Of a stretch of 31,458 bases of DNA, positions 4,245 to 19,371 are shown piece after piece (the first letter of the stretch is position 1; each line of letters starts with the position of its first letter). The notes under the pieces are model-generated. The model was not told the DNA's origin, did not search any database, and worked only from the letters and a program-made list of their open reading frames with translations. Source of the DNA: a virus (lineage: Duplodnaviria; Heunggongvirae; Uroviricota; Caudoviricetes); the IMG/VR virus record IMGVR_UViG_2534681704_000006. One strand, 5' to 3'. Position numbers and translations under genes: made by a program.

Positions 4245-4661
4245 TTATACCTCTGAATCAATATCAACCTGGTGGTGAGCAATGGTTTCAACCATGTACC
4301 GGATGTGTTCTGCCATGCGCTCCTGAAACTCAACATCGTCATCAAACGCACGGGTAATGGCTTTTTTGCTGGCCCCGTGGCGTTGTAAATGATCGATGCA
4401 GAGTGATTCAAACAGGTGCTGGGGCAGACCTTTTTCCATGTCGTCTGCCAGTTCTGCCTCTTTCTCTTCACGGGCGATCTGCTGGTAGTGACGCGTCCAG
4501 CTCTGAGCCTCAAGACGATCCTGAATGTAATAAGCGTTCATGGCTGAACTCCTGAAATAGCTGTGAAAATATCGCCCGCGAAATGCCGGGCTGATTAGGA
4601 AAACAGGAAAGGAGGTTAGTGAATGCTTTTGCTTGATCTCAGTTTCAGTATTAATATCCAT
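4245..4661 (-). CDS. gam: Gam (RecBCD inhibitor)
   Basis: 138-aa product matches recalled lambda Gam long form ([16 protein letters not shown]...). Confidence 0.94.
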
Positions 4662-4759
4662 TTTTTATAAGCGTCGACGGCCTCACGAAACATCTTTTCA
4701 TCGCCAATAAAAGTGGCGATAGTGAATTTAGTCTGGATAGCCATAAGTGTTTGATCCAT
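4616..4759 (-). CDS. kil: Kil (host-killing, FtsZ inhibitor)
   Basis: 47-aa product [47 protein letters not shown] embedded in the longer 89-aa track ORF; overlaps gam as in lambda. Confidence 0.85.
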
Positions 4760-4892
4760 TTTTTGGGACTCCTGGCTGATTAAGTATGTCGATAAGGCGT
4801 TTCCATCCGTCACGTAATTTACGGGTGATTCGTTCAAGTAAAGATTCGGAAGGGCAGCCAGCAACAGGCCACCCTGCAATGGCATATTGCAT
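4728..4892 (-). CDS. cIII: cIII (FtsH inhibitor, stabilises cII)
   Basis: 54-aa product [54 protein letters not shown]; the track ORF N-terminal extension runs into the IS1 end. Confidence 0.9.
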   Translation of the reverse strand: MQYAIAGWPVAGCPSESLLERITRKLRDGWKRLIDILNQPGVPKNGSNTYGYPD

Positions 4893-4894
4893 GG

Positions 4895-4903
4895 TGTGCT
4901 CCG
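4895..4903. repeat. 9-bp target-site duplication (GTGTGCTCC), left copy
   Basis: Same 9-mer directly abuts both IS1 termini. Confidence 0.85.
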
Positions 4904-4917
4904 GTAATGACTCCAAC

Positions 4918-5421
4918 TTATTGATAGTGTTTTATGTTCAGATAATGCCCGATGACTTTGTCATGCAGCTCCACCGATTTTGAGAACGACAGCGACTTCC
5001 GTCCCAGCCGTGCCAGGTGCTGCCTCAGATTCAGGTTATGCCGCTCAATTCGCTGCGTATATCGCTTGCTGATTACGTGCAGCTTTCCCTTCAGGCGGGA
5101 TTCATACAGCGGCCAGCCATCCGTCATCCATATCACCACGTCAAAGGGTGACAGCAGGCTCATAAGACGCCCCAGCGTCGCCATAGTGCGTTCACCGAAT
5201 ACGTGCGCAACAACCGTCTTCCGGAGCCTGTCATACGCGTAAAACAGCCAGCGCTGGCGCGATTTAGCCCCGACGTATCCCCACTGTTCGTCCATTTCCG
5301 CGCAGACGATGACGTCACTGCCCGGCTGTATGCGCGAGGTTACCGACTGCGGCCTGAGTTTTTTAAATGGCGGAAAATCGTGTTGAGGCCAACGCCCATA
5401 ATGCGGGCGGTTGCCCGGCAT
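4918..5421 (-). CDS. insB: IS1 transposase InsB (expressed as InsAB' by -1 frameshift)
   Basis: 167-aa product matches recalled IS1 InsB. Confidence 0.93.
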
Positions 5422-5615
5422 CCAACGCCATTCATGGCCATATCAATGATTTTCTGGTGCGTACCGGGTTGAGAAGCGGTGTAAGTGAACTGCAGTTGCC
5501 ATGTTTTACGGCAGTGAGAGCAGAGATAGCGCTGATGTCCGGCAGTGCTTTTGCCGTTACGCACCACCCCGTCAGTAGCTGAACAGGAGGGACAGCTGAT
5601 AGAAACAGAAGCCAC
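5340..5615 (-). CDS. insA: IS1 InsA (transposition repressor / N-terminal part of InsAB')
   Basis: 91-aa product [43 protein letters not shown]... matches recalled InsA. Confidence 0.93.
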
Positions 5616-5670
5616 TGGAGCACCTCAAAAACACCATCATACACTAAATCAGTAAGTTGGCAGCATCACC

Positions 5671-5679
5671 GTGTGCTCC
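5671..5679. repeat. 9-bp target-site duplication (GTGTGCTCC), right copy
   Basis: Same 9-mer as at 4895..4903. Confidence 0.85.
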
Positions 5680-5741
5680 TTATTTATACATAACGAAAAA
5701 CGCCTCGAGTGAAGCGTTATTGGTATGCGGTAACGCCGCGC

Positions 5742-6110
5742 TCAGGCGGCTTTGATAGTCATATCATCTGAATCAAATATTCCTGATGTATCGATATCGG
5801 TAATTCTTATTCCTTCGCTACCATCCATTGGAGGCCATCCTTCCTGACCATTTCCATCATTCCAGTCGAACTCACACACAACACCATATGCATTTAAGTC
5901 GCTTGAAATTGCTATAAGCAGAGCATGTTGCGCCAGCATGATTAATACAGCATTTAATACAGAGCCGTGTTTATTGAGTCGGTATTCAGAGTCTGACCAG
6001 AAATTATTAATCTGGTGAAGTTTTTCCTCTGTCATTACGTCATGGTCGATTTCAATTTCTATTGATGCTTTCCAGTCGTAATCAATGATGTATTTTTTGA
6101 TGTTTGACAT
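5742..6110 (-). CDS. ea10: Ea10-like early protein
   Basis: 122-aa product (MSNIKKYIIDYDWKASIEIEIDHDV...) matches my recollection of lambda Ea10 and sits between cIII and sieB as in lambda. Confidence 0.8.
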   Translation of the reverse strand: MSNIKKYIIDYDWKASIEIEIDHDVMTEEKLHQINNFWSDSEYRLNKHGSVLNAVLIMLAQHALLIAISSDLNAYGVVCEFDWNDGNGQEGWPPMDGSEGIRITDIDTSGIFDSDDMTIKAA

Positions 6111-6127
6111 CTATTCATATCCTCACA

Positions 6128-6156
6128 GATAAAAAATCGCCCTCACATTGGAGGGC
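6128..6156 (-). terminator. intrinsic terminator upstream of ea10 in the leftward operon (tL1-like)
   Basis: Minus-strand hairpin GCCCTC-CAATGT-GAGGGC followed by GATTTTTTATCT. Confidence 0.55.
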
Positions 6157-6370
6157 AAAGAAGATTTCCAATAATCAGAACAAGTCGGCTCCTGTTTAGT
6201 TACGAGCGACATTGCTCAGTGTATTCACTCGTTGGAATGAATACACAGTGCAGTGTTTATTAGTATGCCTGTCTTTTAACCACATCAGGCTCGGTGGTTC
6301 TCGTGTACCCCTACAGCGAGAAATCGGATAAACTCTATTCACCCCTACAGAGAGCAAAAGAGAAACGCCG

Positions 6371-6952
6371 ATGAACAACTCATGGTGGCAGGAACTAATG
6401 CATTTTTTCCTGCAAGGAATGACACTTAAACAGTTGATTCATATGCTAATCATCCTAATCATATTGATTATTGTTATGCCTGTAAGCGTAAAAGAATGGA
6501 TAAACCTGCATAATCCAGAAATCCTTCCTCATTACTGGATGTATTACATCCTGTTGTTTTGCGTTAGCTATGTGCTTAACGGCGTTGTTAATTCCGCTTA
6601 TCACGCTGTGACTGAAAGAATTGAGATATTCGCTGCTCAGAAGCGCAAATCTAAAGAAGAGAAATACGTGCAAGATTTGTTTGATTCGTTAACTCTTGGA
6701 GAAAGAGCGTATTTGGCATTCGCTGTAGCCGCTAATAACCAGCTAAAGACAGAAAAGGGAAGCCCTGAAGCAATCTCATTGCTCGAAAAAGGGCTTCTTA
6801 TTCGGGTACCTTCTGCTACTGGATATCCTGAAATCGACCGTTTTGTTATCCCAGAACGCTATAGAAATGAGTGCTACATTAGGTTTGCTGGGAAGAAAGA
6901 CAGTCTTATGGATGAACTTATCGCTCAGGATAAGCATGGCAAAAACAAGTAA
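6371..6952 (+). CDS. sieB: superinfection exclusion protein B
   Basis: 193-aa membrane protein (MNNSWWQELM.FFLQGMTLKQLIHMLIILI...KHGKNK) matching recalled lambda/Rac SieB; encoded opposite to the leftward early operon, convergent with N. Confidence 0.85.
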   Translation: MNNSWWQELMHFFLQGMTLKQLIHMLIILIILIIVMPVSVKEWINLHNPEILPHYWMYYILLFCVSYVLNGVVNSAYHAVTERIEIFAAQKRKSKEEKYVQDLFDSLTLGERAYLAFAVAANNQLKTEKGSPEAISLLEKGLLIRVPSATGYPEIDRFVIPERYRNECYIRFAGKKDSLMDELIAQDKHGKNK

Positions 6953-6968
6953 TTAGCAAATTAATTTA

Positions 6969-7241
6969 TCATCTCGCCGTCAGTTGTTTTGATTTCCGGT
7001 AGCCTGCCGCGTAAATGGCTACGTTTGGCAGGCAAATACTTCCACTGCATTCATCTGCCTTCTTGCAGCGAAGGCTTCCGAGTGATGCTGCTTTGTCTGC
7101 TCTGACGCAACCAGAGAGCTTTAGCGCAATTTTTCGCGCCAGTCGCTGTTCTTGCATTGCCTGCTCACGTTGAGCCTGTCTGCGTGCTCTGCGGCGATTT
7201 CTGGCGTTATCGTCAGCCAGATATGTAATGACTACTGCCAT
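6969..7241 (-). CDS. N: N-type transcription antiterminator (arginine-rich motif; P22 gp24-like C-terminus)
   Basis: 90-aa basic protein; N-terminal Arg-rich motif NARNRRRARRQAQREQ; C-terminal LPNVAIYAAGYRKSKQLTAR resembles P22 gene 24; first gene downstream of candidate nutL. Confidence 0.8.
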   Translation of the reverse strand: MAVVITYLADDNARNRRRARRQAQREQAMQEQRLARKIALKLSGCVRADKAASLGSLRCKKADECSGSICLPNVAIYAAGYRKSKQLTAR

Positions 7242-10849: not shown

Positions 10850-11290
10850 ATGAAAAAACTAACCTTTGAAATTCGATCTCCAGCACATCAGCAAAACGCT
10901 ATTCACGCAGTACAGCAAATCCTTCCAGACCCAACCAAACCAATCGTAGTAACCATTCAGGAACGCAACCGCAGCTTAGACCAAAACAGGAAGCTATGGG
11001 CCTGCTTAGGTGACGTCTCTCGTCAGGTTGAATGGCATGGTCGCTGGCTGGATGCAGAAAGCTGGAAGTGTGTGTTTACCGCAGCATTAAAGCAGCAGGA
11101 TGTTGTTCCTAACCTTGCCGGGAATGGCTTTGTGGTAATAGGCCAGTCAACCAGCAGGATGCGTGTAGGCGAATTTGCGGAGCTATTAGAGCTTATACAG
11201 GCATTCGGTACAGAGCGTGGCGTTAAGTGGTCAGACGAAGCGAGACTGGCTCTGGAGTGGAAAGCGAGATGGGGAGATCGGGCTGCATGA
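10850..11290 (+). CDS. ninB: NinB (Orf-family recombination mediator)
   Basis: 146-aa product from MKKLTFEIRSPAHQQNAIHAVQQILPDPTKPIVV... matches recalled lambda NinB. Confidence 0.9.
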   Translation: MKKLTFEIRSPAHQQNAIHAVQQILPDPTKPIVVTIQERNRSLDQNRKLWACLGDVSRQVEWHGRWLDAESWKCVFTAALKQQDVVPNLAGNGFVVIGQSTSRMRVGEFAELLELIQAFGTERGVKWSDEARLALEWKARWGDRAA

Positions 11291-11814
11291 CTATCAAATC
11301 AAATACGCCAGCACACGACAAGGACTGCTGGCAAACGCCGCTTTGGCTTTTTGATGCACTGGATATTGAGTTTGGATTCTGGCTGGATTCGGCAGCGAGC
11401 GACAAAAATGCTCTGTGTGCTCACTGGCTAACTGAGGCCGACGACGCGCTCAATTCTGAGTGGGTAAGCCACGGTGCAATCTGGAATAACCCACCGTACA
11501 GCAATATCAGGCCGTGGGTGGAAAAAGCTGCTGAGCAGTGCATACAACAGCAACAGACGGTAGTTATGCTTGTGCCAGAGGATATGTCAGTCGGATGGTT
11601 CAGCAAGGCTCTGGAGAGTGTCGACGAAGTTCGCATTATCACTGATGGACGGATTAATTTTATCGAACCATCGACAGGGCTGGAGAAGAAGGGAAACAGC
11701 AAAGGCTCCATGCTGCTGATTTGGCGACCGTTCATCAGTCCTCGACGGATGTTTACTACCGTATCCAAAGCGGCATTGATGGCGATCGGGCAGGGCGTCA
11801 GGAGGGCGGCATGA
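11287..11814 (+). CDS. phage-type DNA N6-adenine methyltransferase (Dam-like)
   Basis: 175-aa product with NPPY motif (AIWNNPPYS); start overlaps ninB stop (ATGA); nin-region position typical of lambdoid phage methyltransferases. Confidence 0.8.
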
Positions 11815-12900: not shown

Positions 12901-13037
12901 TGTTTGAGTTTAATATGGCAGAACTTCTTCGCCACCGCTGGGGGCGTCTGCGCTTATATCGTTTCCCCGGTTCTGTTTTGACCGATTACCGAATACTGAA
13001 GAATTACGCCAAAACACTGACAGGAGCAGGAGTATGA
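12897..13037 (+). CDS. ylcG: YlcG-like small protein
   Basis: 46-aa [26 protein letters not shown]... overlapping rusA stop, same arrangement as DLP12 rusA-ylcG; below the ORF-track length cut-off. Confidence 0.6.
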
Positions 13038-13122
13038 AGTCAGAGATAACAATCAACTAATACTGTTTTGTTGATTTTTGCTTGTAATTGGCGTTCTGGT
13101 CTGAGTTTTGTGGAGTAAGTTG

Positions 13123-13500
13123 ATGCGTGATATTCAGATGGTTCTTGAGCGTTGGGGAGCGTGGGCGGCTAATAATCATGAAGATGTGACCTGGTCGTCC
13201 ATTGCCGCCGGTTTTAAGGGATTAATTCCTTCAAAAGTAAAATCTCGCCCACAATGTTGTGACGATGACGCGATGATCATTTGCGGGTGCATGGCCCGTC
13301 TGAAAAAGAACAACAGCGATTTGCATGATTTATTGGTGGACTATTATGTCGGCGGCATGACTTTTATGGCGCTTGCACGTAAGCATGGGCGATCTGATTG
13401 TTGGGTTGGCAGGATGCTTCAGAAAGCTGAGGGCGTAGTGGAGGGTATGCTGATGGTGTTGGATCTCCGATTGGAGATGGATGCTGATTGTTCGAAATAA
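13123..13500 (+). CDS. Q: late-gene antiterminator Q (phage 82/DLP12 QuuD-like)
   Basis: 125-aa product [57 protein letters not shown]... (Cys-rich zinc-binding Q family); GGAG ribosome-binding site 7 nt upstream. Confidence 0.85.
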
Positions 13501-13512
13501 TTAAAGGAAAAG

Positions 13513-13541
13513 TTGCTGTCTGATTGTCATTAGTCTAACAT
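13513..13541 (+). promoter_or_regulatory. candidate late promoter pR' (-35 TTGCTG, -10 TAACAT)
   Basis: Hexamers with 17-bp spacing immediately downstream of Q and upstream of the tR'-like terminator; placement by analogy with lambdoid pR'. Confidence 0.35.
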
Positions 13542-13598
13542 TTTAAATGTTGGAATCGCAACGTAGTTATTATCATATAACAGCTTGTTTCCTGATTT

Positions 13599-13630
13599 AG
13601 CCAGCCTCCCCAAAGGCTGGTCTTTTTCTA
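13599..13630 (+). terminator. tR'-like intrinsic terminator downstream of Q (end of 6S-type leader RNA)
   Basis: Hairpin CCAGCCT-CCCCAA-AGGCTGG followed by TCTTTTTCT. Confidence 0.55.
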
Positions 13631-13655
13631 ATAAGTATTATTTCGGGTAGGGATT

Positions 13656-14180
13656 TTATTGTTTAACCCATAATAATTCATTGACATTGAATCCCAACTT
13701 TTGAGCGGTTCGCACATAGTCTGCTTTTACTTTATCTGGAATAGTTGGGGTCCTTGCCAGAATCCATAGGTATTCTCTGTTCGGACCACTGACAAGAGCA
13801 TACTTATACTCATCATCCAGTTTGATTACATTATAGCCACCATAGAAGGGGCCAAAAAACGAAACCTTCAATGCTGCAGTTTTAGTATCTCCAGTAAAGT
13901 ATGCTTTACCTTCGCTCTCGCTCCATTTATTTTTCGTTGGATCGTATCCACGGTTAAGTACACGAATCCCTCCGTCGTTCCGTTTTCCATAAGTAGCGCT
14001 GACCTGTTCCAGACCACGTTCGAACCGGTTCTCGAGGCGAGCTATTTCATACCATTTTCCGAGGTAGCGGTTGGCGTCAAAATTTGTAATCGGCTGCACA
14101 CCTTTAGGTGGTGTCGGGGCCTTACATGCTATAAGAGTGAAAGAGAGTGCAATGCCAGTCAACACAGGCCATAACTTCAT
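13656..14180 (-). CDS. blc: Blc-like outer-membrane lipocalin lipoprotein
   Basis: 174-aa product with lipobox (LIAC) and strong similarity to recalled bacterial lipocalin Blc (NFDANRYLGKWYEIARLENRFERGLE...KVSFFGPFYGGYNVI...YLWILARTP). Confidence 0.85.
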   Translation of the reverse strand: MKLWPVLTGIALSFTLIACKAPTPPKGVQPITNFDANRYLGKWYEIARLENRFERGLEQVSATYGKRNDGGIRVLNRGYDPTKNKWSESEGKAYFTGDTKTAALKVSFFGPFYGGYNVIKLDDEYKYALVSGPNREYLWILARTPTIPDKVKADYVRTAQKLGFNVNELLWVKQ

Positions 14181-14372
14181 AATAAATCCTGTACTTTTGA
14201 TAGTTGAGAGTAAGTATGAAAGATAGATGATTACGACCGATCACTTAAAGAACTTTCATACTATATTAGGAATAGTCCATAACAGAAAAATTGTCAGTGA
14301 TGACGCCAGAAAGGCAATTTATTCCGTGCACTACACAGTTTATGTGTTAATGAATTAGTCAAGGGGGAGAAT

Positions 14373-15332
14373 ATGATAAAAAAACCTGTGATTGGAATCA
14401 GCGGTTGTTTGGCCGGTTCTGCTGTTCGTTTTGATGGTGGTCACAAAAGAGCTGACTTTTTAATGGACAAATTAGTGGAATGGGTAACATTCAGACCAGT
14501 ATGTCCGGAAATGGCTATAGGGCTGCCAGTTCCGCGTCCTGCTCTACGTCTTGTGCGCTCGATGCAAGGAAATATACGGATGTGTTTCAGCCACGACCAG
14601 AATGAGGATGTGACAGAGAGAATGACAGAGTTTAGTCGTTCTTATATGGACAAATTAAAGGATGTATCGGGGTTTGTGGTTTGTGCTAAATCTCCCAGCT
14701 GTGGCATGGAGCGCGTGCGTGTCTATGATGAAAATGGTAATCGAGGTCGTAAAGATGGAGTGGGACTATTTACGAGCACTTTGATGGAAAAGTTTTCCTG
14801 GCTACCGGTTGAAGAGGATGGGCGATTACATGATCCAGTGCTTCGTGAGAATTTTGTTGAAAGAGTTTTTGCTTTGCATGAGCTCAATCACCTTTACAAG
14901 GAGAAATTATCAAGAAGAGAGTTATTAGCTTTTCATAGTCGTTATAAGCTTCAGTTGTTGGCGCATAGTCAGGCAGGCTATAAAGATATGGGACCATTTG
15001 TGGCTGCAATACACGAGTGGGCGGACCTTGAATCATACTTTGAGGTGTATCGTGATAAGCTGATGGCGATTCTCAGAAAACCTGCATCACGTAAAAATCA
15101 CACGAATGTGCTGATGCATATACAGGGGTATTTTAGTAACTACTTAAGTACACGCCAGCGTAAAGAGTTGAGCGAGGTTATACTTAACTATCGTTCTGGC
15201 ACATTACCTCTTCTTGCGCCGTTGACTCTGCTGAAGCATTATCTGGGTGAGTATCCTAATGATTACTTGCTTACACAGAATTACTTCGATCCCTATCCGG
15301 ACGAACTGGCTCTAAGACTGATGGTAAATTAA
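14373..15332 (+). CDS. DUF523/DUF1722 fusion protein (TudS-like [4Fe-4S] desulfidase-type N-domain)
   Basis: 319-aa ORF; N-terminal GISGCLAGSAVRFDGGHK motif with further conserved Cys residues, typical of DUF523; C-terminal half resembles DUF1722 (YbgA-like); domain assignment from memory. Confidence 0.65.
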   Translation: MIKKPVIGISGCLAGSAVRFDGGHKRADFLMDKLVEWVTFRPVCPEMAIGLPVPRPALRLVRSMQGNIRMCFSHDQNEDVTERMTEFSRSYMDKLKDVSGFVVCAKSPSCGMERVRVYDENGNRGRKDGVGLFTSTLMEKFSWLPVEEDGRLHDPVLRENFVERVFALHELNHLYKEKLSRRELLAFHSRYKLQLLAHSQAGYKDMGPFVAAIHEWADLESYFEVYRDKLMAILRKPASRKNHTNVLMHIQGYFSNYLSTRQRKELSEVILNYRSGTLPLLAPLTLLKHYLGEYPNDYLLTQNYFDPYPDELALRLMVN

Positions 15333-15674
15333 TTGTATGCGATATCATCCAAAAGGATGAGTTCCTGCATGCAGGATATTTACAATCGTAAAAACTACAC
15401 TATGATACCCAGAGTGTCAGTTTGTATAAAAACTCTGTTTACGCTGAAGAAACAATTGAGATGCAACTTAAAGTTGGTAAACATGCCAGTCAAAATATAT
15501 AATATTATGATTCCACGCAGCTATATATAATATAACAGATTGGTTTAATAATTTGTCTTTGTGAGTTAAATACATAATTTTATACTTGTGATGCAATGAA
15601 ATTTTCCTTATTGTTGAACTGGCGAATATTGATTTTCCACCTATACTTACCTGGTGTAACCCCAATGATATCAG

Positions 15675-16415
15675 GTGGATAATATGCCATACATATGTTC
15701 TATCATTTTGGTGTTGAACTCGTTTGATGTCCGAATTGGTAAAGAAGATATTTTGTTTAAAAAAGGAAGTGCTGTTCTCATTGATTACAATTTAAAAGAT
15801 TTTTTTTCATCAAATATAGATCATGTAATGATCGTAGATGTTGAAGAGAAAACAGTTAATGATTTCTTTAAAAGCAACACACTCTCACCTTTTTCTGTAA
15901 GAAGGTTTTATCCGGCATACTTGATGGTGGAATGTGAAGATTTTTCATTGTTAAAGAACTTGATTGCATGCTTGAATTGTGATGGCAGAACTGTGGATTT
16001 TGTTAGAAATCAAATATCACTTGCATGTCTTGCTATCTTATCTTCAGAGAAAATAGTGCAAAGTTTTTTATTTGGATGTCTTAATAGTTTAGGAAGTAAA
16101 GTTAAGGCTATTATTCACACGGATATATCTGCAGCATGGAGACTTTGTGATATATCTTCAAGACTGTATCTGAGTGAAAGTCTGTTAAAAAGAAAATTAA
16201 AGCACGAAGGCTTATCATTTAGTAAGTTAATTCTTGAAGAGCGAATGGTGATGGCGGAAAGGTTATTAAGCTACAATTTATATTCTGTTGGAAAAGTTGC
16301 TGAGATATGCGGTTATGAAAACACGTCATATTTTGTAAGTGTTTTCAGAAGGTATTTTGGTGTTCCTCCCCATCAATATTCATCAAGATTTTTTTTAGAA
16401 AAAGACATGATGTAA
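15675..16415 (+). CDS. AraC/XylS-family transcriptional regulator (AT-rich, AppY/GadX-like architecture)
   Basis: 246-aa ORF with C-terminal dual HTH AraC signature (...LKHEGLSFSKLILEERMVMAERLL...VGKVAEICGYENTSYFVSVFRRYFGVPP); very AT-rich gene and flanks. Confidence 0.8.
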   Translation: MDNMPYICSIILVLNSFDVRIGKEDILFKKGSAVLIDYNLKDFFSSNIDHVMIVDVEEKTVNDFFKSNTLSPFSVRRFYPAYLMVECEDFSLLKNLIACLNCDGRTVDFVRNQISLACLAILSSEKIVQSFLFGCLNSLGSKVKAIIHTDISAAWRLCDISSRLYLSESLLKRKLKHEGLSFSKLILEERMVMAERLLSYNLYSVGKVAEICGYENTSYFVSVFRRYFGVPPHQYSSRFFLEKDMM

Positions 16416-16602
16416 CGTGATGCGTTTTAATGATTTTGTAATTTTCGTATTTGATAATTGTATGATGCTTTCAGCTACGCCAGAATAATCGCGGCGTTTT
16501 TCTTTTTGAATAGATGTTCAAGCCTTACGCTAATGTAACTTCTATACCTTTCCTCTTCGTTCCGAACCGTGTACACCATCCGTTATTTGCGGAGGTGAGG
16601 CT

Positions 16603-16818
16603 ATGAAATCCATGGATAAGTTAACAACGGGTGTCGCCTATGGCACCTCAGCAGGTAGTGCCGGTTACTGGTTTTTACAGCTGCTCGATAAAGTCACGCC
16701 CTCACAGTGGGCAGCAATAGGTGTGCTGGGTAGCCTGGTATTTGGCCTGCTGACGTACCTGACAAACCTTTATTTCAAGATTAAAGAAGATAAGCGCAAG
16801 GCTGCGAGAGGTGAATAA
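16603..16818 (+). CDS. S: class II holin, phage 21 S-type (pinholin) with dual start motif MKSM
   Basis: 71-aa product [31 protein letters not shown]...[13 protein letters not shown] matches recalled S21 holin/antiholin. Confidence 0.9.
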
Positions 16819-17315
16819 TGCCTCCATCATTACGAAAAGCCGTTGCTGCTGCTATTGGTGGCGGAGCAATTGCTATAGCATCAGTGTTAATCACTGGCCC
16901 AAGTGGTAACGATGGTCTGGAAGGTGTCAGCTACATACCATACAAAGATATCGTTGGCGTATGGACTGTATGTCACGGGCATACAGGAAAAGACATCATT
17001 CCCGGTAAAACGTATACCGAAGCAGAATGCAAAGCCCTCCTGAATAAAGACCTTGCCACGGTAGCCAGACAAATTAACCCGTACATCAAAGTCGATATAC
17101 CGGAAACAACGCGCGGCGCTCTTTACTCGTTCGTCTATAACGTGGGCGCAGGCAATTTCAGAACATCTACTCTTCTTCGCAAAATAAACCAGGGCGATAT
17201 CAAGGGCGCATGTGACCAGCTACGTCGCTGGGCATACGCTGGCGGTAAGCAATGGAAAGGCCTGATGACTCGTCGTGAGATTGAGCGTGAGGTCTGTTTG
17301 TGGGGGCAACAATGA
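16818..17315 (+). CDS. R: SAR endolysin (lysozyme, R21/RrrD-like)
   Basis: 165-aa product; Gly/Ala-rich N-terminal signal-arrest-release segment ([18 protein letters not shown]); catalytic E-x8-D-x5-T spacing ([17 protein letters not shown]); start overlaps holin stop. Confidence 0.9.
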
Positions 17316-17776: not shown

Positions 17777-17913
17777 AATCTTAACTACAATATGATTCAT
17801 TTTGATGATTGTTTCATAAGGAACAGTGAAGTAAGATCTAAGAGGAGTTAAATTTTATACAGTATAATCATAATATTGCAGCAAGGTGGTTATAATTGAA
17901 AGAATATTTAGAT

Positions 17914-19371
17914 ATGAATACATCTCATGTAAGAGTTGTTACTCATATGTGTGGGTTCCTGGTTTGGCTCTATAGTCTTTCAATGTTGCCACCAATGGTT
18001 GTAGCATTGTTTTATAAAGAAAAAAGCCTGTTCGTTTTCTTTATAACTTTCGTTATATTTTTTTGCATTGGTGGCGGAGCGTGGTATACAACTAAGAAAT
18101 CTGGCATTCAATTACGTACCCGTGATGGGTTTATTATAATTGTAATGTTTTGGATTTTGTTTTCTGTTATTAGTGCATTCCCTTTATGGATTGACTCAGA
18201 ACTTAATTTAACGTTCATTGATGCTCTGTTTGAAGGGGTTTCTGGAATAACAACAACAGGAGCAACTGTAATTGATGATGTTAGTTCATTACCTCGGGCA
18301 TATTTGTACTATCGGTCACAGTTAAATTTTATAGGTGGTTTAGGAGTTATTGTTCTGGCGGTTGCTGTATTGCCATTATTGGGTATTGGTGGTACAAAGC
18401 TTTATCAGTCAGAAATGCCGGGGCCATTTAAGGATGACAAACTCACTCCCCGCCTGGCCGATACGTCACGGACACTGTGGATAACTTATTCTTTATTAGG
18501 TATTGCTTGTATTGTCTGTTATAGACTTGCAGGAATGCCTTTGTTTGATGCTATTTGTCACGGGATTTCCACAGTTTCGCTTGGTGGTTTCTCAACTCAT
18601 AGCGAGAGTATCGGATATTTTAATAACTATTTGGTTGAGCTGGTGGCTGGTTCTTTTTCCCTGCTATCGGCTTTCAACTTCACTCTTTGGTATATTGTTA
18701 TTAGCAGGAAAACGATAAAACCTTTAATCAGAGATATTGAACTTCGTTTCTTTCTGTTAATAGCCTTAGGGGTGATCATTGTTACCTCTTTCCAGGTCTG
18801 GCATATAGGTATGTATGACTTGCATGGAAGTTTTATTCATTCGTTTTTTCTTGCCAGCTCCATGCTCACTGATAATGGTTTAGCTACGCAGGATTATGCA
18901 AACTGGCCCACGCACACGATAGTGTTTTTGCTGTCGTCAAGTTTCTTTGGGGGATGTATAGGTTCAACTTGTGGTGGAATTAAGTCACTTCGATTTCTTA
19001 TACTTTTCAAACAAAGCAAACACGAGATAAATCAGCTTTCTCATCCCAGAGCGTTGTTGAGTGTAAATGTAGGAGGGAAGATAGTTACAGATCGTGTAAT
19101 GAGGTCTGTATGGAGTTTCTTTTTTCTTTATACTCTCTTCACGGTGTTTTTTATACTGGTGTTAAATGGTATGGGATATGATTTTCTTACATCATTTGCA
19201 ACAGTGGCTGCATGTATTAATAATATGGGATTAGGTTTTGGGGCTACTGCATCGTCATTCGGAGTGCTTAATGACATTGCAAAATATTTAATGTGCATAG
19301 CTATGATTCTTGGTCGCCTTGAAATTTATCCTGTTATTATATTGTTTTCAGGTTTTTTTTGGCGCTCCTAA
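17914..19371 (+). CDS. trkG: TrkG potassium uptake protein (TrkH family)
   Basis: 485-aa multi-pass membrane protein from MNTSHVRVVTHMCGFLVWLYSLSMLPPMVVALFYKEK...; matches recalled Rac-prophage TrkG; AT-rich. Confidence 0.92.
   Translation: MNTSHVRVVTHMCGFLVWLYSLSMLPPMVVALFYKEKSLFVFFITFVIFFCIGGGAWYTTKKSGIQLRTRDGFIIIVMFWILFSVISAFPLWIDSELNLTFIDALFEGVSGITTTGATVIDDVSSLPRAYLYYRSQLNFIGGLGVIVLAVAVLPLLGIGGTKLYQSEMPGPFKDDKLTPRLADTSRTLWITYSLLGIACIVCYRLAGMPLFDAICHGISTVSLGGFSTHSESIGYFNNYLVELVAGSFSLLSAFNFTLWYIVISRKTIKPLIRDIELRFFLLIALGVIIVTSFQVWHIGMYDLHGSFIHSFFLASSMLTDNGLATQDYANWPTHTIVFLLSSSFFGGCIGSTCGGIKSLRFLILFKQSKHEINQLSHPRALLSVNVGGKIVTDRVMRSVWSFFFLYTLFTVFFILVLNGMGYDFLTSFATVAACINNMGLGFGATASSFGVLNDIAKYLMCIAMILGRLEIYPVIILFSGFFWRS

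Follow-up and report, generated by a model that had tools for sequence, protein, structure and literature searches.

The Lc porin of phage PA-2 is a classical lysogenic-conversion gene, and the slot that it occupies, between the late antiterminator gene Q and the holin gene, holds Shiga toxin in other phages; accessory genes of this kind, dispensable for phage growth, are known as morons. Among the morons already catalogued is the lipocalin gene blc, reported from more than 50% of 19 lambda phages from the infant gut (Mathieu 2020, PMC6969025). A separate line of work has defined RudS, a TudS desulfidase fused to a DUF1722 domain, as an enzyme that takes 4-thiouridine (s4U) off tRNA (Jamontas 2024, NAR, PMC11417400); among the variants described is a viral one, RudS_vir, the product of H3V29_gp66 of phage 1H12 (NC_049947), with Cys12, Cys44 and Cys110 as ligands (Table 1, PMC11417400). 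Here we describe a segment of a 31,458-nucleotide stretch of viral DNA (IMG/VR record IMGVR_UViG_2534681704_000006; hereafter the window) in which a lipocalin gene, a rudS gene and a gene for an AraC-family regulator stand together in the Q-to-holin slot of a lambda-type prophage. We are highly confident of the identity of these genes and of their nature as a cassette. The overall picture, that of a fixed three-gene moron cassette of lambdoid coliphages whose RudS would serve as an s4U eraser under near-ultraviolet (near-UV) and translation stress, we hold with moderate confidence.

The cargo interval runs from the stop codon of Q at 13500 to the start of the holin gene at 16603 and contains three open reading frames (ORFs): on the minus strand, a Blc-type lipocalin of 174 amino acids predicted to be an outer-membrane lipoprotein (13656..14180); on the plus strand, RudS, a TudS (DUF523)-DUF1722 fusion of 319 amino acids (14373..15332); and, also on the plus strand, an AraC/XylS-family regulator of the YdeO/AppY/PatE group, 243 amino acids long (15684..16415). 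The rudS and araC genes are co-directional with late transcription, to which the lipocalin gene is antisense. Homology to the DLP12 prophage amounts to 95% up to position 13482, 18 nt before the Q stop, and to 94% again from 16592, 11 nt before the holin ATG. The left recombination junction accordingly falls at 13482, inside the last 18 nt of Q, where homology to DLP12 quuD ends, and the right cassette junction at 16592, where it resumes. The initial annotation, made from the letters of the DNA, had placed the three ORFs where we find them, within limits that essentially coincide with these junctions, and had described them as accessory cargo with a lipocalin on the opposite strand and an AT-rich araC gene upstream of the holin; its assignments to the lipocalin, DUF523/DUF1722 and AraC families hold in profile searches, with E-values from 1e-11 to 1e-44.

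The middle gene of the cassette, rudS, was already CHARACTERISED, from the 1H12 copy of the cassette, in 2024: the RudS_vir gene is the rudS of that copy, and the window protein is identical to its product at 298 of 319 positions (93%). The N-terminal domain of the window RudS matches 2-thiour_desulf (DUF523/TudS, PF04463; 4.5e-40) at residues 7-149, covering model positions 1-141 of 141, and the same polypeptide carries a C-terminal DUF1722 domain (PF08349; 5.8e-41) at residues 192-309. The TudS-like cysteine motif announced in the initial annotation is present as Cys12, Cys44 and Cys110, the [4Fe-4S] ligands, all aligned with those of RudS_vir; Cys12 and Cys44 also align with Cys10 and Cys43 of TudS. 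Glu46, Arg55, Ser107 and Ser109 are the counterparts of the catalytic residues E51, R60, S111 and S113 of RudS_KT, an equivalence established by motif offset and not by a computed alignment with the KT sequence; the motifs CPE46 and PR55P align with TudS, and S107-P-S109-C110 was read off the translation. All RudS variants tested, RudS_vir included, reduced tRNA s4U when overexpressed in E. coli, and mutagenesis showed that the DUF1722 domain aids tRNA binding (PMC11417400). Judging from its sequence, the window allele would be expected to remove s4U as well.

The membership of the N-terminal domain in the TudS 2-thiouracil desulfurase family lends itself to another reading, the salvage or detoxification of thiolated nucleobases, a possibility of which detoxification had been raised in the initial annotation, in which free 4-thiouracil or tRNA-derived 4-thio-uridine monophosphate (4-thio-UMP) would be converted to uracil or UMP, feeding phage pools or removing a toxic base. 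RudS_vir conferred the shortest lag of the RudS enzymes tested on a uracil auxotroph supplied with 4-thiouracil (PMC11417400), and stand-alone TudS enzymes recycle 4-thio-UMP (PMC10611767). The tRNA-binding DUF1722 domain is, however, kept under purifying selection, and free thiouracil is not a known natural stress of gut E. coli; we consider salvage a distinctly unlikely role.

The three genes travel together across early-gene backgrounds. IMG/VR holds 125 cassette loci; in all 80 of those examined a lipocalin gene on the minus strand accompanies rudS on the plus strand, and in 79 of the 80, that is, wherever the contig extends to Q, the pair directly follows Q. The AraC gene is intact in 71 of these 80 loci, while five others reach the holin gene without an intact copy, those checked being insertion sequence (IS) or deletion derivatives, and the last four are uninformative in this respect (three contigs end just past rudS, and one has neither a holin nor an AraC match in the 6 kb downstream). 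Twelve of the 41 phage records that share the rusA-ylcG-Q module have the cassette; these twelve isolated phages carry different structural modules and include plaque-formers (IdasGreatGrand, 99% identity; the 1H12 group, 89%). Early regions of the Qin type (hokD-rem-DUF968-Q) with the same Q can have the cassette behind them as well. Among 5426 complete E. coli genomes, 4519 have matches to the flanks and 1152 to the cassette, 997 of the latter at a coverage of at least 80%, so that about 18-21% of the genomes carry it.

What occupies the slot in other phages of this type is frequently a porin gene. DLP12 has nmpC and IS5 there, and in the live phages ev243, 4A7 and mEp332, whose Q and holin are of the same types, the porin gene is intact and likewise antisense. 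The Lc/NmpC porin cassette was found in 36 phage records (coverage of at least 80%), and phages with these Q and holin types carry it more often than the lipocalin-RudS-AraC cassette. The latter is an optional, common alternative in the slot and not a standard conserved part of the late region, an outcome that the initial annotation had itself named as fatal to its reading of the genes as cargo and that the figures of 12 in 41 same-module phages and 36 porin records speak against.

Damaged copies of the cassette are common. Insertions of IS1, IS2, IS3 and IS5 are frequent in it (E. coli genomes H1-H5, H12, H41, H43, H45, H47, H53, H69, H70 and H73, and locus L076), and what is usually lost, both in the IMG/VR loci and in strain 165, is the AT-rich AraC gene. 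E. coli C43(DE3) (L077, NZ_CP011938.1 1582616-1593495; locus 4484-7073) retains Q, an intact lipocalin gene and the first 147 nt of rudS; this remnant of the E. coli B lineage is cut by IS3 and lies in a Qin-like prophage. The published RudS ultraviolet A (UVA) experiment had BL21(DE3) as its host. Two short contigs (L058, L063) from a metagenome-assembled genome labelled Candidatus Nanosynbacter sp. bear cassette pieces (Q, lipocalin, RudS, AraC, holin) at 94-100% identity, most likely through contamination of the bin.

The composition of the cassette suggests that it was assembled from two parts of different origin, a lipocalin/rudS pair and a low-GC AraC regulator. The GC content is 43.8% for the lipocalin gene and 43.3% for rudS, against 31.8% for the AraC gene and 48-49% for the flanks, a contrast within the cassette that points to at least two separate acquisitions. 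Between the window and the 1H12 allele, the ratio of nonsynonymous to synonymous substitution rates (dN/dS) stands at 0.06 (lipocalin), 0.11 (RudS) and 0.26 (AraC), compared with 0.05-0.09 for Q, holin and lysozyme, and the amino-acid identity of the AraC proteins is 83% as opposed to 93-97% for the others. These ratios indicate purifying selection on all three genes. They also bear on the notion that the cassette is functionless passenger DNA riding with a successful Q-holin module, as might be supposed from the cryptic-prophage copies, which are often hit by IS1, IS2, IS3 or IS5 or truncated, those of the E. coli B lineage among them. Low dN/dS across alleles with nucleotide differences of 5-13%, together with the integrity of the genes in plaque-forming phages and their high prevalence, makes that notion extremely improbable.

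Outside phages, relatives of the lipocalin-rudS pair are found in chromosomes. When one genome per species was scanned, RudS (66-76% identical to the phage protein) turned up at 62 chromosomal loci, belonging to Citrobacter, Enterobacter, Leclercia, Lelliottia, Kluyvera, Klebsiella, Pectobacterium and Dickeya; no Q, holin or AraC gene of this type was found near any of the 62. A divergent lipocalin gene lies at most 2.3 kb upstream of RudS in 41 of them, its product being 69-82% identical to the phage lipocalin, and 36 of these loci have the order lipocalin (minus), MerR/MlrA-type regulator (plus), transthyretin-like gene (plus) and RudS (plus). All in all, a MerR gene stands between lipocalin and RudS in 38 of the 62 loci, whereas the phage pair has none; the direct adjacency of the phage genes recurs in only two loci, those of C. 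sedlakii and Citrobacter sp. JGM124. In Citrobacter braakii (L006 167-8947), RudS closes a cluster of ten co-directional ORFs headed by the MerR/MlrA gene (MerR/MlrA-SnoaL-SDR-FAD amine oxidase-DUF1365-cyclopropane fatty acid (CFA) synthase-DUF2878-an ORF without Pfam match-DUF3833-RudS), a gene set that we take to be the cluster conserved in proteobacteria for the response to singlet oxygen and blue light. A convergent gene for an SOS-response-associated peptidase (SRAP) lies just downstream of RudS in this species, and DUF3833 is a lipoprotein; it was considered as a relative of the lipocalin and rejected (hhalign probability 0.6%, with only the lipobox aligned). RudS has been reported in light-responsive operons, with a MerR neighbour in Enterobacter cloacae, where UVA pre-treatment decreases tRNA s4U (PMC11417400). 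The phage pair is thus a fragment of a near-UV/photo-oxidative-stress locus, the native regulator of which it lacks. The intergenic region from which the two phage genes diverge (14181..14372), which is conserved between two phage alleles and presumably holds promoters of its own, gave no alignment to the intergenic regions of the C. sedlakii and Citrobacter JGM124 loci, and hence no donor can be named.

The phage lipocalin itself matches Lipocalin_2 (PF08212) at 7e-44, the Blc subfamily NF007786 of NCBIfam with 316 bits, above the cutoff of 267, and Blc in the PDB at 3.5e-69. It has the lipobox LIAC (...FTLIAC19K...), with Cys19 invariant in a multiple alignment and Lys at position +2; since residue +2 is not Asp, sorting to the outer membrane is predicted. 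Orthology with the chromosomal blc gene next to ampC failed on identities, which are 60% to K-12 Blc and 80-82% to the lipocalins linked to RudS in Enterobacter, Leclercia and C. sedlakii. To judge from these values, the phage protein falls into the paralogue lineage linked to RudS and not into that of the ampC-adjacent blc. The conserved pairing of lipocalin and RudS, with its link to a MerR-controlled photo-oxidative-stress locus in other Enterobacteriaceae, provides a concrete functional hypothesis for it.

The third gene of the cassette encodes a protein with a C-terminal double helix-turn-helix (Pfam HTH_18, 1.1e-14; HTH_AraC, 2.1e-11) that matches the GadX DNA-binding domain in the PDB (2.6e-20). 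The ORF finder starts it at a GTG at 15675, 9 nt upstream of the RefSeq ATG at 15684. Its best match among the models is YdeO, over the full length and at 127 bits, far under the equivalog cutoff of 348 bits. The protein is 54% identical by BLASTP (52% in a multiple alignment) to ECs_0287 of strain Sakai, which we equate with PatE because it is the only AraC-family gene in Sp1/CP-933H (OI-8) of O157:H7, and 31% identical to each of AppY and YdeO. We regard it, on these alignments, as a relative of PatE, with YdeO and AppY as more distant kin. PatE and PsrB are activators of acid resistance that act on the gadE and hdeA promoters. Paralogues of the PatE type were also met in phages mEp332 (L071 3492-4244; 51% identical in the multiple alignment) and ev099 (L072 3501-4244), with tblastn identities of 52-53% for the two; they lie in the b region, between the tail-fibre genes and int, with transposase fragments beside them, and both phages have the porin cassette, not the lipocalin cassette, in the Q-holin slot.

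The AraC protein could be the cassette's own regulator, which would have replaced the MerR/MlrA-type regulator and would turn on lipocalin and rudS in the lysogen upon some signal; such a function would be compatible with a role of RudS in near-UV tolerance. The phage pair does lack the MerR gene seen in 38 of the 62 chromosomal loci, the three genes move as one across early-gene backgrounds, and nearly all informative IMG/VR copies without an intact AraC gene are IS or deletion derivatives. On the other hand, its GC content and lower identity between alleles point to a separate origin, the close paralogues, PatE and those of mEp332 and ev099, stand by themselves in the b region with neither a lipocalin nor a RudS gene, PatE targets the gad and hde genes of the host, and derivatives deprived of AraC retain intact lipocalin and rudS genes. 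We view a regulatory function within the cassette as rather doubtful.

Between Q and the lipocalin gene lies a leader of the pR'/qut type (13501..13655, plus strand) that ends in a tR'-like intrinsic terminator, a hairpin with a T-run. The hairpin, at about 13599-13621 (the site extends to about 13630) and followed by CTTTTTCT, has a folding energy of -14.2 kcal/mol (z = -3.6); it is the sole terminator-like site found by a scan of 13000-17000 and lies about 100 nt past Q. It stands where tR' is expected, and the cargo thus lies downstream of the late leader and terminator and upstream of the holin gene, with no further strong terminator ahead of the latter. With the left junction inside the last 18 nt of Q, the leader is specific to the cassette; it has only short motifs in common with that of DLP12, such as ATATAACAG (window 13482-13600 compared with L005 4317-4530). 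The leaders of the lipocalin and porin cassettes have diverged though the Q DNA is about 95% identical. A 20-nt direct repeat (13571-13590/15526-15545, 85% identical) that also holds ATATAACAG was considered as a second late promoter and rejected, about two to three such pairs being expected by chance, on a rough estimate, in AT-rich DNA of this length. The AraC gene is preceded by an AT-rich spacer (15333..15683) with sigma-70-like hexamers at 15379-15406 and 15474-15503 (10/12 matches) and followed by a terminator-like hairpin with a T-run (16477..16508, plus strand), recognized by alignment and fold energy. This hairpin has -8.1 kcal/mol in the window and -12.1 kcal/mol in the 1H12 allele, the weakening being due to the loss of 1 nt that is present in the 1H12 and IdasGreatGrand alleles. 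Over 13000-17000, an Rfam search at E<=1 returned sub-threshold noise only and ARAGORN found no tRNA.

The most likely role of the cassette, as far as these comparisons allow us to infer, is tolerance of near-UV and translation stress. Upon induction, Q-modified RNA polymerase would pass tR' and transcribe the lysis genes along with rudS and araC, crossing the lipocalin gene in the antisense direction; rudS, which lies downstream of tR' in the late direction, would for this reason be strongly expressed. The [4Fe-4S] cluster of RudS would then remove the sulfur from s4U at position 8 of tRNAs, which is their near-UV chromophore, and the lowered s4U8 would mean fewer s4U8-C13 photo-crosslinks and, in turn, less uncharged tRNA, less guanosine tetraphosphate (ppGpp) and less translation arrest. 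The benefit would be felt in sunlight, as UV both induces the prophage and endangers late protein synthesis. The lipocalin, whose gene is antisense to late transcription, is for that reason probably expressed in the lysogen, where, by analogy with Blc, it would serve as an outer-membrane lipoprotein for damaged or lyso-lipids. The lysogen may express the lipocalin, and possibly low levels of RudS and AraC, as conversion genes, and lysogenic conversion by the cassette appears plausible. AraC probably activates AT-rich promoters silenced by H-NS, whether those of host acid-resistance genes, as PatE does, those of the cassette, or both.

Several observations weigh against this proposal. RudS_vir had the weakest tRNA desulfidation among the well-expressed variants, and the UVA phenotype, in which RudS_KT shortened a growth delay of about 105 min to about 60 min, was demonstrated with the Pseudomonas enzyme alone, and only when it was overexpressed (PMC11417400). 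Erasure of s4U is not obviously beneficial either, since s4U has been reported to protect Salmonella against near-UV killing and its loss can open tRNAs to decay by the degradosome. No mechanism ties AraC to the other two genes, and AraC is the gene most often destroyed by IS elements. Finally, a promoter scan of 13000-17000 gave 13 matches where shuffled sequences led us to expect 11.3; being at chance level, these matches are unusable for placing promoters. The physiological rationale is put forward as a tentative one, on which we lean slightly to the doubtful side. A bolder extension of it, that coliphages took an s4U eraser and a lipocalin from a light-stress regulon into their late operon, so that sunlight, which induces the prophage, could no longer stall late translation through s4U8-C13 crosslinks and the stringent response, and the near-UV physiology (growth delay, ppGpp burst, tRNA s4U level) of about one fifth of E. 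coli strains would depend on a prophage and vary between strains, strikes us as fairly improbable.

The position in the late operon, which implies expression in lytic growth, could also serve a light-independent function in counter-defence or host take-over, with RudS remodelling the tRNA pool against a tRNA-targeting abortive-infection nuclease or a ppGpp shut-down. tRNA modifications can be determinants for anticodon nucleases, as N6-threonylcarbamoyladenosine (t6A) is for PrrC. No known defence system reads s4U8, however; PADLOC returned no matches for any of the three proteins, the literature searched shows no link of thiI or s4U to the outcome of phage infection, and the chromosomal homologues are found in stress operons and not in defence islands. 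All of this renders counter-defence very unlikely.

The initial annotation had stated that the combination had no described role in phage biology. This is outdated for two of the three genes, RudS_vir, 93% identical to the window protein, being known to lower tRNA s4U (PMC11417400) and blc being listed as a moron (PMC6969025); the finding is real and largely known, that of a catalogued moron and a characterized viral RudS in a classical conversion slot. In the literature searched we found no discussion of the cassette as a unit, nor of RudS in prophages or lysogens; the study of RudS_vir dealt with its gene in isolation, without the phage context, and E. coli is said to be without RudS both in the RudS literature (PMC11417400) and in a 2026 review. 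What is added here is the presence of a prophage rudS copy in some 18-21% of complete E. coli genomes despite such statements, the conserved divergent lipocalin-RudS pair with its link to a stress operon in other Enterobacteriaceae, and the alternation of the cassette with the classical lc/nmpC porin at one recombination slot. If the late operon does express RudS, the enzyme would count among the few phage-encoded erasers of a tRNA modification, and the comparison of a lysogen with a cured strain would offer a simple natural system in which to follow s4U erasure in vivo without overexpression.

The element that hosts the cassette is a lambda-type prophage integrated next to ybhC (the attB-lambda side in near-identical genomes), with the order int-xis...exo-bet-gam-kil-cIII...cI-cro-cII-O-P-ren-nin genes-rusA-ylcG-Q, cargo, essD-lysozyme-Rz, trkG and terminase, head and tail genes. 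Q (13108..13500, plus strand; RefSeq start 13123) matches Phage_antitermQ at 2.5e-51 and is annotated as antiterminator Q family in identical genomes; the P21-type holin gene essD (16603..16818, plus strand; Phage_holin_2_1, 2e-35) is the first lysis gene and is followed by lysozyme and Rz genes, both recognized by Pfam. Directly after the lysis cassette comes a second cargo gene, trkG (17896-19371, plus strand), encoding a potassium transporter of the TrkH family (Pfam, 8.9e-144) with a GC content of 37-40%, and a ParB/Srx-like gene stands between it and the terminase genes; the Rac prophage of K-12 keeps only a remnant of such an arrangement. In the nin region, an ORF for an N6-adenine methyltransferase with an NPPY motif (11227-11814, plus strand) is open in the window, whereas the otherwise near-identical prophage of strain 81EVA has it annotated with a frameshift.

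Set beside described systems, the locus resembles each of them in part. Its slot is the one used by Stx phages, but unlike theirs it is without a tRNA or known small RNA. The lc/nmpC porin cassette of PA-2 and DLP12 shares with it the interval, the Q and essD types, an outer-membrane protein gene placed antisense right after the leader, and a similar length of exchanged DNA (about 3.1 kb in DLP12, IS5 insertion included); it differs in being of unrelated sequence and a single gene, without enzyme or regulator. PatE (Z0321/ECs_0287), AppY and YdeO have the full-length architecture, the low GC content and the prophage-borne or prophage-associated location of the window AraC protein, which is the orthologue of none of them and whose gene occupies the Q-holin slot instead of a place beside int in the b region. 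E. coli Blc (PDB 1QWD, 2ACO, 3MBT) has in common with the phage lipocalin the Lipocalin_2 fold, a lipoprotein signal and a full-length alignment, but at 60% identity it stands apart from the RudS-linked lineage. The chromosomal RudS loci of Enterobacter, Leclercia and Citrobacter share both proteins and the divergent orientation, and differ in having a MerR/MlrA-type regulator and, in most cases, a transthyretin-like gene, or else an entire stress operon with CFA synthase, and no AraC gene; ORF319/STM1389 of Salmonella is likewise a chromosomal RudS under a MerR regulator. Closest of all is RudS_vir (1H12 gp66), which has the same 319 amino acids in length, the same three cysteines and the same place between the lipocalin and AraC genes in the Q-to-holin slot, and of which the window carries a different allele, with 21 substitutions, 92% nucleotide identity and a dS of 0.29.

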